Below are positions 42,775-43,397 of a stretch of 64,000 nucleotides of DNA, in pieces. The notes under the pieces are model-generated. The model did no database searches and was not told where the DNA came from. It was given only the letters and a program-made list of their open reading frames with translations. The translations under genes were made by a program, and so were the position numbers. The stretch is from Eledone cirrhosa (lineage: Eukaryota), in contig OZ024746.1 of assembly GCA_964016885.1 (NCBI GenBank), positions 65,782,001 to 65,846,000 on the forward strand, written 5' to 3'. Each line of letters opens with the position of its first letter. The first letter of the stretch is position 1.

Positions 42775-43397
42775 CTGTTAGCCTCTTCCTCACCCTTCAC
42801 TCACTCATTCTCTGTCACTACCTCTCCTCCTCCTCTTTCTTCCCGTTTGACCTGTCCGTAATTCTTTTCTCGCGCGTTCTTGGCCAAGCCGGTATGAATT
42901 TTTTTTCTCTCTCGCTCTCTCTCTCTCTCTCTCTCTCTCTCTCTCTCTCTCTCTCTCTCTCTCTCTCTCTCTCTCTCTCTCTCTCTCTCTCTCGTCTGCG
43001 ACTTCACAGAACTTATGTTTACCGAATTCGCAGACCAGACCCCTTCTTCCTCCCGTTAGACCTGTGCGAAATTCCTTCCTTGCTCACATTTCAACCAGGT
43101 TTGATGGTCTTTATTCTCTCGTTCACGATTTCACCGAATTTATATTCATAGAAATCTGGGACTTGTCTCTTTCTTCATCACTTTCTGTTGCTTAAACCAT
43201 TTTGTTTGTTTGCCCTAGCGTCCCCTTTATTTACATGTCCCAACGACTTTTTTTAGCCGTTGCTCGCACCAACCTGAGGTATATGGTCTTTAAAGCGATG
43301 AAATGCCTATGACGGTTGAAAGACCACTGATGAAGGACAAACTTTTTCATATGTAACCCATTTGCAACGCCGCAGCTCCATTATTATCATATTTACC
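42775..43397 (+). mobile_element. (TA)n-flanked element carrying the pseudoknotted motif
   Basis: Pyrimidine-rich body with (TC)n, distantly similar to the reverse complement of 29408-30245. Motif at 43236-43339. Confidence 0.7.

Follow-up and report, generated by a model that had tools for sequence, protein, structure and literature searches.

The motif described here is a real and conserved RNA fold of six helices, all of which close inside ~105 nt. It was found in the window, the whole stretch of 64,000 nucleotides of the Eledone cirrhosa genome that was analysed; this genome has a size of 3.0 Gb and is rich in AT and microsatellites. The sequence predicts a hammerhead whose core blocks follow the cycle S (NUH), G (GAAA) and C (CUGAnGA) with block C split, and at least some families of the motif probably self-cleave in the manner proposed below. 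The carriers are non-autonomous, non-coding Penelope-type repeats inserted in (TA)n.

Six copies are present in the window, with the coordinates and strands that the first-pass annotation had given (Table 1). All blocks are intact in three of them (29433, 43236 and 62703). The copies 24550, 29955 and 63207 are damaged.

Table 1. Split-C motif copies, their carriers and the parts of copy 43236 in the window.
Feature	Position	Strand	Remarks
Split-C permuted hammerhead-like motif, family F43	43236..43339	+	predicted; first pair of helix X weakened by one private change
Closing helix PA, 5' strand	43236..43240	+	pairs with 43335-43339
Hairpin, 7 bp, 8-nt loop	43241..43262	+	abuts PA and stem II without linker
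Stem II, 10.x strand	43263..43267	+	pairs with 43295-43299; 10.1-11.1 is C.U here instead of G-C
Helix X, 5' strand	43269..43274	+	pairs with 43314-43319; equivalent to the SGC stem I-II interaction helix
Predicted k-turn, non-bulged strand U, G, A	43275..43277	+	bulged strand 43308-43313; joins X and stem III
Block S: stem III strand, AUA triplet, stem I strand	43278..43289	+	H17 = 43283
Predicted cut	43283/43284	+	3' of AUA in block S
Block G: stem II 11.x strand, GAAA (43300-43303), stem III strand	43295..43307	+	
Block C, first part: stem I strand, CUGAUGA (43327-43333), extra A, PA 3' strand	43321..43339	+	
Carrier of the 43236 motif: 5'-truncated copy of the 626-bp non-coding F43 unit	42774..43404	+	
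(TA)n runs bounding the F43 carrier	42685-42774 and 43398-43471		
Family F29 motif, complete	29433..29535	-	AUC triplet; H17 = 29488
F29 upstream tandem copy, period 522	29955..30037	-	without 5' clamp; H17 = 30010
F29 insertion, partial-tandem	29404..30248	-	
Family F62 motif	62703..62810	-	AUC triplet; H17 = 62761; one stem I mismatch
F62 copy, damaged	63207..63312	+	GGAA replaces GAAA; H17 = 63256; inverted partner of the 62703 copy
F62 insertion with 5'-inverted arm (Penelope-like habit)	62704..63359	.	
F24 copy, damaged	24550..24642	+	core gone after CU; H17 = 24597
F24 element	~24178-24655		carries the 24550 motif copy

For comparative analysis, 154 distinct near-full copies were clustered into families. 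The resulting alignment (A3) consists of 11 real copies, each of which represents a family or subfamily. It omits F77, a fifth family that is absent from the window and too divergent for in-register alignment, and four singletons that are damaged or near an already included family. In the five helices hairpin, II, X, III and I, 95.5% of the cells are paired and 16 of the 28 pairs show two-sided changes; as the rows are related, these covariation figures correspond to no formal P value. None of 500 shuffles matches either the pairing value or the two-sided count, and in slid controls the pairing falls to 26–48%. The closing helix PA was counted separately and has 4–7 bp in all 11 rows.

Covariation is highest in helix X, where five of the six pairs change on both sides. 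The hairpin shows two-sided changes in five of seven pairs and stem I in three of six. Stems II and III covary weakly (2/4 and 1/5 pairs, respectively). More than 98% of the cells are paired in stems I and III, which flank the cleavage site. Helix X is formed by the 13-nt linker, taken to be unpaired in the first-pass annotation, and the segment listed there as a 15-nt spacer, which makes it the sixth helix. Further details had to be revised. Only copy 24550 has the TTCACC/GGTGAA that was listed as covariation; its family consensus reads TTCGC/GCGAA, and both changes of this copy are located at CpG sites and are therefore decay-like. The supposed 1-nt register shift of the internal helix (ACGC/GCGT) is an alignment gap. 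An alternative 6-bp stack of the core with the stem I/linker strand was dropped, with zero covariation.

Column conservation over the 11 rows is 0.99 for the core and 1.00 for G/A/A of the k-turn, compared with 0.63 for helix X and 0.67 for N7, H17 and the bulge. The spacing of stems I and III and of the 11 core positions is in every case that of a hammerhead, and the core includes A15.1-U16.1. The triplet NUH is AUA or AUC in the A3 families and GUC in F77, and H17 is A or C throughout.

For L018, a copy identical to the F43 consensus, energy minimisation gives a nested subset of the structure with PA, hairpin, X and III. The z-scores of folding reach only modest values, from -3.1 to +0.4, and in both copies tested the opposite strand does equally well or better. 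G-U pairs, which had been thought to favour the strand, occur in six cells as compared with four A-C cells, too few for a choice. What decides the strand is the letters of the core, together with the sense orientation of the motif in the 3' UTRs of Naiad elements.

Genome searches with four of the window copies as queries gave at least 1427, 1112, 2102 and 881 first-look candidates, and at least 849 were obtained for F77 (L191-L220); these totals are lower bounds and no copy numbers. Four motif copies at three places were found in 60 blind 10-kb stretches. Scaling from these stretches leads to an estimate of ~20,000 copies in the genome (95% range 5,400–51,000). A search for S, G and C in this order together with stems I and III yielded 121 matches in 854 kb and a single match in the reversed sequence. 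In a larger set of 2.05 Mb, 135 distinct S-G-C cores are present versus five in the control, which bears out the order NUH, GAAA, CUGANGA noted earlier. The split layout fits 94 of the 135 cores and one in the control. The control is a single set, which was read on both strands and is counted once. The loci were mostly retrieved through the motif, so these match counts speak to specificity and not to density. An Rfam scan of the motif returned zero matches with E up to 10, and the motif was likewise unmatched at gathering score when six family loci were scanned.

The order of the blocks is not that of hammerhead types I, II and III (C, G, S). The reversed order itself is not new, since it was described by Eckert et al. 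2023 as type SGC from metatranscriptomes, where it was shown to cleave (PMC10085705). Type SGC with the same four helices has cleavage rates of 0.007–0.19 per min (PMC10085705). The scheme of these authors is built from the blocks S, G and C, which are assumed to be uninterruptible (PMC10085705). Type SGC (HRIMA-1 and variants) and the window motif share the order S, G, C, the pseudoknotted stems I–III, a short linker connecting stems I and II and often an extra base after A9. Additionally, both possess an extra helix formed by the strand following 10.x and the strand preceding stem I. In the window motif, on the other hand, block C is split, with 10.x and one strand of X located at the 5' end, and a bridge of PA and hairpin leads from A9 to 10.1; the k-turn consensus is a further difference. 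Our own rendering of the Eckert search pattern fits 0 of 135 cores (control 0).

In the SGC-1 construct, rebuilt by eye from its primers, the 10.x strand is followed by one base and then by a strand that pairs directly upstream of stem I. The window motif holds both of these strands at its 5' end and would therefore be a circularly permuted SGC. We infer that the ends of SGC are joined via a k-turn and that the molecule is reopened between A9 and 10.1. Type CSG, represented by two metagenomic sequences in Eckert et al. 2023, has the non-circular cycle and helix X in common with the window motif; it is opened between blocks G and C, whereas the window motif is opened within block C. The available parts of that report list type SGC from metatranscriptomes and none from the genome of a known organism, whereas the window motif lies in a nuclear genome. 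The motif had not been recognised as a described one; its order is that of the published type SGC. In the literature searched (outside subscription journals and bioRxiv supplements), neither a hammerhead opened between A9 and 10.1 nor permuted hammerheads in Naiads were found described. Natural extra-helix hammerhead variants are cited in PMC13725137, and a term search of PMC10162972 found no mention of such variants.

The type I (CGS) hammerheads in the pseudo-LTRs of Penelope, Neptune and Hydra elements share the core and the place near the 3' end of the element with the window motif (PMC4209133). Unlike the window motif, they form a three-way junction without core pseudoknots and are often dimeric (PMC4209133). 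Type I hammerhead-like motifs in canonical order, belonging to other Penelope families, are also present in the window at 22061 (-), 34644 (+), 63610 (+), 52878 (-) and 52917 (+). They are abundant across the collected loci and form tandem arrays of 310 bp (L130) and ~480 bp (L231). Long near-perfect inverted repeats at 52859-52933 and 53182-53259 correspond to head-to-head repeat ends. Long open frames were found at the loci L121-L140 and L221-L240. These are Hydra-like Penelope elements (750 aa, no Pfam match) and Neptune-like frames of 938–1096 aa, with RVT_1 on the single one scanned; both suggest recent activity.

In a k-turn, two helices are joined by a 3-nt bulge and the tandem G.A and A.G pairs that come after it. 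At the junction of helix X and stem III, a 3-nt bulge followed by GA is read in all 11 rows of the sequence alignment. The opposite strand has GA in nine rows and UA, with U at 2n, in the other two. This consensus is predicted to join helix X to stem III. It is absent in F77 and Acropora, where plain large bulges are found.

The strand after CUGAnGA and the strand before GAAA form only 0–3 bp in all 11 rows, and at least 4 bp in one of the 135 cores. This pairing, together with the pattern fit of 0/135, rules out a direct stem II in the manner of SGC. Probably, the internal helix is stem II, and PA and the hairpin would form a clamp that bridges the break between A9 and 10.1. Thus, one of the three helices noted at the position of stem II can be assigned to that stem and the other two belong to the clamp. 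Position 10.1-11.1 is a standard pair in one of the 11 rows (U-A) and is G-C in none of them. G10.1-C11.1 is present on the internal helix in F77 and, by eye, in published Naiad ends. The core of F77 is canonical throughout, with GUC, and no other family here has that G-C pair. In the window-type families PA starts with G-C or G-U beside A9. As its first pair adjoins A9, PA may replace the lost G10.1-C11.1. In the window families, the first G-C of PA may thus have taken over from this pair, or else activity may be low. For the predicted ribozymes of the window's own families, which do not have G10.1-C11.1, catalysis stays as doubtful as it was in the first-pass annotation.

The carrier units are 505–699 bp long, have no reading frame, occur in tandem or inverted and are 5'-truncated. 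Their 3' ends run into (TA)n at a few preferred places. These units thus show the Penelope-like traits of partial tandems, 5' inversions, 5' truncation, short tail and microsatellite target. An array of F43 units with ~629-bp spacing is located at C1:132,612,780-132,622,320 (search coordinates only). Like retrozymes, the units are tandem and non-coding, with a single predicted ribozyme each. Metazoan non-LTR retrozymes also consist of short non-coding tandem units with one hammerhead each and are tied to Penelope elements (PMC7229834; 10.64898/2026.07.22.740005). They carry type I hammerheads and have been shown to exist as circular RNA, whereas the window units carry the permuted form, are longer (520–700 bp) and are known from DNA.

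If cleaved RNA served as the template, the 5' ends of insertions would be expected to cluster at the cut of the upstream ribozyme. In an exploratory set, 6 of 21 insertion 5' ends are located within -5 to +10 of the predicted cut (1.0 expected), one of the six possibly being an inversion artefact. For replication, this interval was fixed beforehand and F43 copies were drawn with a query outside the ribozyme, so that 25 of 30 loci were new. Only one of the 16 at-risk 5' ends of this F43 set is at the cut, with 0.8 expected. The upstream ribozyme was read through intact by most insertions. A 5'-end footprint is unsupported for F43; this result fits circular or uncleaved templates and leaves activity undecided. 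Several insertion 5' ends are found 42–60 nt downstream of the predicted cut of the upstream unit. A reverse transcriptase would first meet structure in this region, and stalling is possible.

Naiads were reported by Craig et al. 2021 to be without a canonical hammerhead (PMC8557442). The same report lists fragments named 'HHR_core' and 'HHR_half_core' that fit no descriptor, including those of Octopus and Euprymna elements (PMC8557442). Naiads share (TA)n targets, 5' truncation, partial tandems, inverted arms and short tails with the window units (PMC8557442). They differ in that the window units are frameless, and the available parts of that report give the fragments no fold (PMC8557442).

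The last 300–450 nt of 53 published Naiad consensi (supplement of PMC8557442) were read by eye only. The reversed cycle is present in 15 of these 3' ends. The full split layout with G10.1-C11.1 is found in six (two Octopus, three Acropora and one Morbakka) and near forms in two (Euprymna and Beroe). Another six, all from nematode Naiads, are of type CSG and one, from a spider Naiad, is of type SGC. Helix X is kept in all 15 ends by the same reading, and the CSG and SGC ends have the short I-II linker of the split form. In the other 38 ends such a hammerhead was not seen within the part viewed. The motif runs sense to the reading frame in the 3' UTRs of these consensi. By eye, Naiad-1_Movir and Naiad_Mley carry twister-like text at their 3' ends (PMC8557442 supplement). 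Bivalve and hemichordate Naiads share two other conserved 3' motifs, which by eye are not hammerheads and by position are candidate unknown ribozymes.

A decayed Naiad-like family is present in the genome (L242, L245) with the motifs DKA, YDFSTLYT, GIPMG and YIDD and at least 386 first-look candidates. Its 3' region (L275-L304) contains unsplit S, G and C ~500 nt past the stop codon. Positions 3 and 8 of the core are U in 27 and A in 28 of 30 loci, respectively; a compensatory U3-A8 core pair was reported for PLE hammerheads (PMC4209133). A reverse transcriptase is found within 1.5 kb at 5 of the 30 loci, and an N-terminal endonuclease was not seen in this family. The Naiad clade is marked by a reading frame with N-terminal GIY-YIG, CxC and a DKA-type reverse transcriptase. 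In the tail, an AU-rich hairpin separates stem I from GAAA, stem II is very short and additional helices are possible. It is a different S-G-C subtype from the split form of the window.

An autonomous element with the tails of the four window families was not found in the loci examined. The reverse transcriptase beside L024 was rejected as a carrier, as it belongs to a separate element with C-terminal endonuclease and type I hammerheads. A search for a Naiad parent via GIY-YIG covered 30 loci and 20 long-frame regions, and the readable long frames show C-terminal endonucleases. Model R1 gave no genuine match on 32 Naiad-like loci, and a pattern of the Octopus Naiad motif had 0 matches across this genome. 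Probably, the window fold is derived from the tails of Naiad retrotransposons. The link between the split form and Naiads is suggested by the published consensi as read by eye.

Our best explanation starts from an SGC hammerhead whose two ends would be joined where the k-turn links X to stem III, with a new opening between A9 and 10.1. PA and the hairpin would keep these new ends in place and still allow A9, G12 and stem II to meet, and ordinary hammerhead cleavage would occur 3' of AUC, AUA or GUC. Tandem transcripts would be cut into unit-length RNAs, which would be circularised by host ligase as in non-LTR retrozymes. In metazoan retrozymes, a host ligase has been shown to circularise the RNA (PMC7229834). 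The circles would then be copied into (TA)n by a Naiad reverse transcriptase, and read-through of the re-joined ribozyme would produce partial tandems. The first-pass reading of a rearranged hammerhead-like RNA of a PLE-type retroelement is retained as the best one, with cleavage predicted from sequence. With moderate confidence, we extend it to an active hammerhead with a four-strand core that is opened in block C and contains a k-turn, the stem II pair being handed over in some families. The split-C, SGC and CSG forms would then be the missing ribozymes of Naiads across animal phyla.

A fold that descends from a hammerhead could instead have been kept as a structural signal, for a partner such as the reverse transcriptase or a k-turn-binding protein, with the window families cutting poorly or never. 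We regard this as unlikely. It would agree with the lack of G10.1-C11.1 in all 11 rows, with upstream ribozymes that are mostly read through intact, with the failed 5'-end test and with the weak cleavage of minimal PLE hammerheads in vitro (PMC4209133). However, conservation is 0.99 for core letters without a pairing role and only 0.63 for the drifting helix X, H17 is never other than A or C, and F77 and the published Naiad ends retain the canonical pair; circular templates would also give read-through. Assembly of an ordinary hammerhead across tandem copies or two RNAs, like the dimeric type I of Penelope, is very improbable. Tandem repetition leaves the order S, G, C unaltered, ~105 nt suffices to close six helices and the strands after CUGAnGA and before GAAA form 0–3 bp in all 11 rows and at least 4 bp in one of 135 cores. 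These points outweigh the occurrence of units in tandem and inverted pairs, the palindromic stem III of F62 and the precedent of dimeric PLE hammerheads (PMC4209133).

A different ribozyme or structured RNA that has converged on the hammerhead and uses another site or strand is just as improbable. The missing Rfam match, the equal stability of the opposite strand in folding and the interruption of block C, assumed impossible by Eckert et al., can be cited in its favour. On the other hand, hammerhead spacing is kept by stems I and III and by every one of the 11 core positions, the motif is sense to the Naiad frame, and sister Naiads show, by eye, textbook CSG and SGC with helix X and the short I-II linker. 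Chance pairing among related repeats with no selection on structure is extremely unlikely. Shuffle controls are blind to relatedness, many copies are damaged and one cited covariation resembles CpG decay, yet the slid controls collapse to 26–48%, and cores number 135 versus 5 in the control sequence and split layouts 94 versus 1. Furthermore, unrelated Naiad sequences from coral, box jellyfish and octopus re-form each helix when read by eye.

The split-C topology lies outside the six-permutation scheme with uninterruptible blocks put forward by Eckert et al., and its k-turn joint addresses their puzzle of how the interaction helix is linked to stem III. Non-circularly permuted hammerheads move from metatranscriptome contigs to animal chromosomes, where they are present in high copy number. 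If the reading is true, non-circular permutations would be common in animal genomes and no rarity of viroid-like RNA. As to the Naiad puzzle of Craig et al. 2021, ribozymes may exist in these elements in an order that is invisible to the descriptors, which bears on whether every Penelope clade requires self-cleavage at its 3' end.
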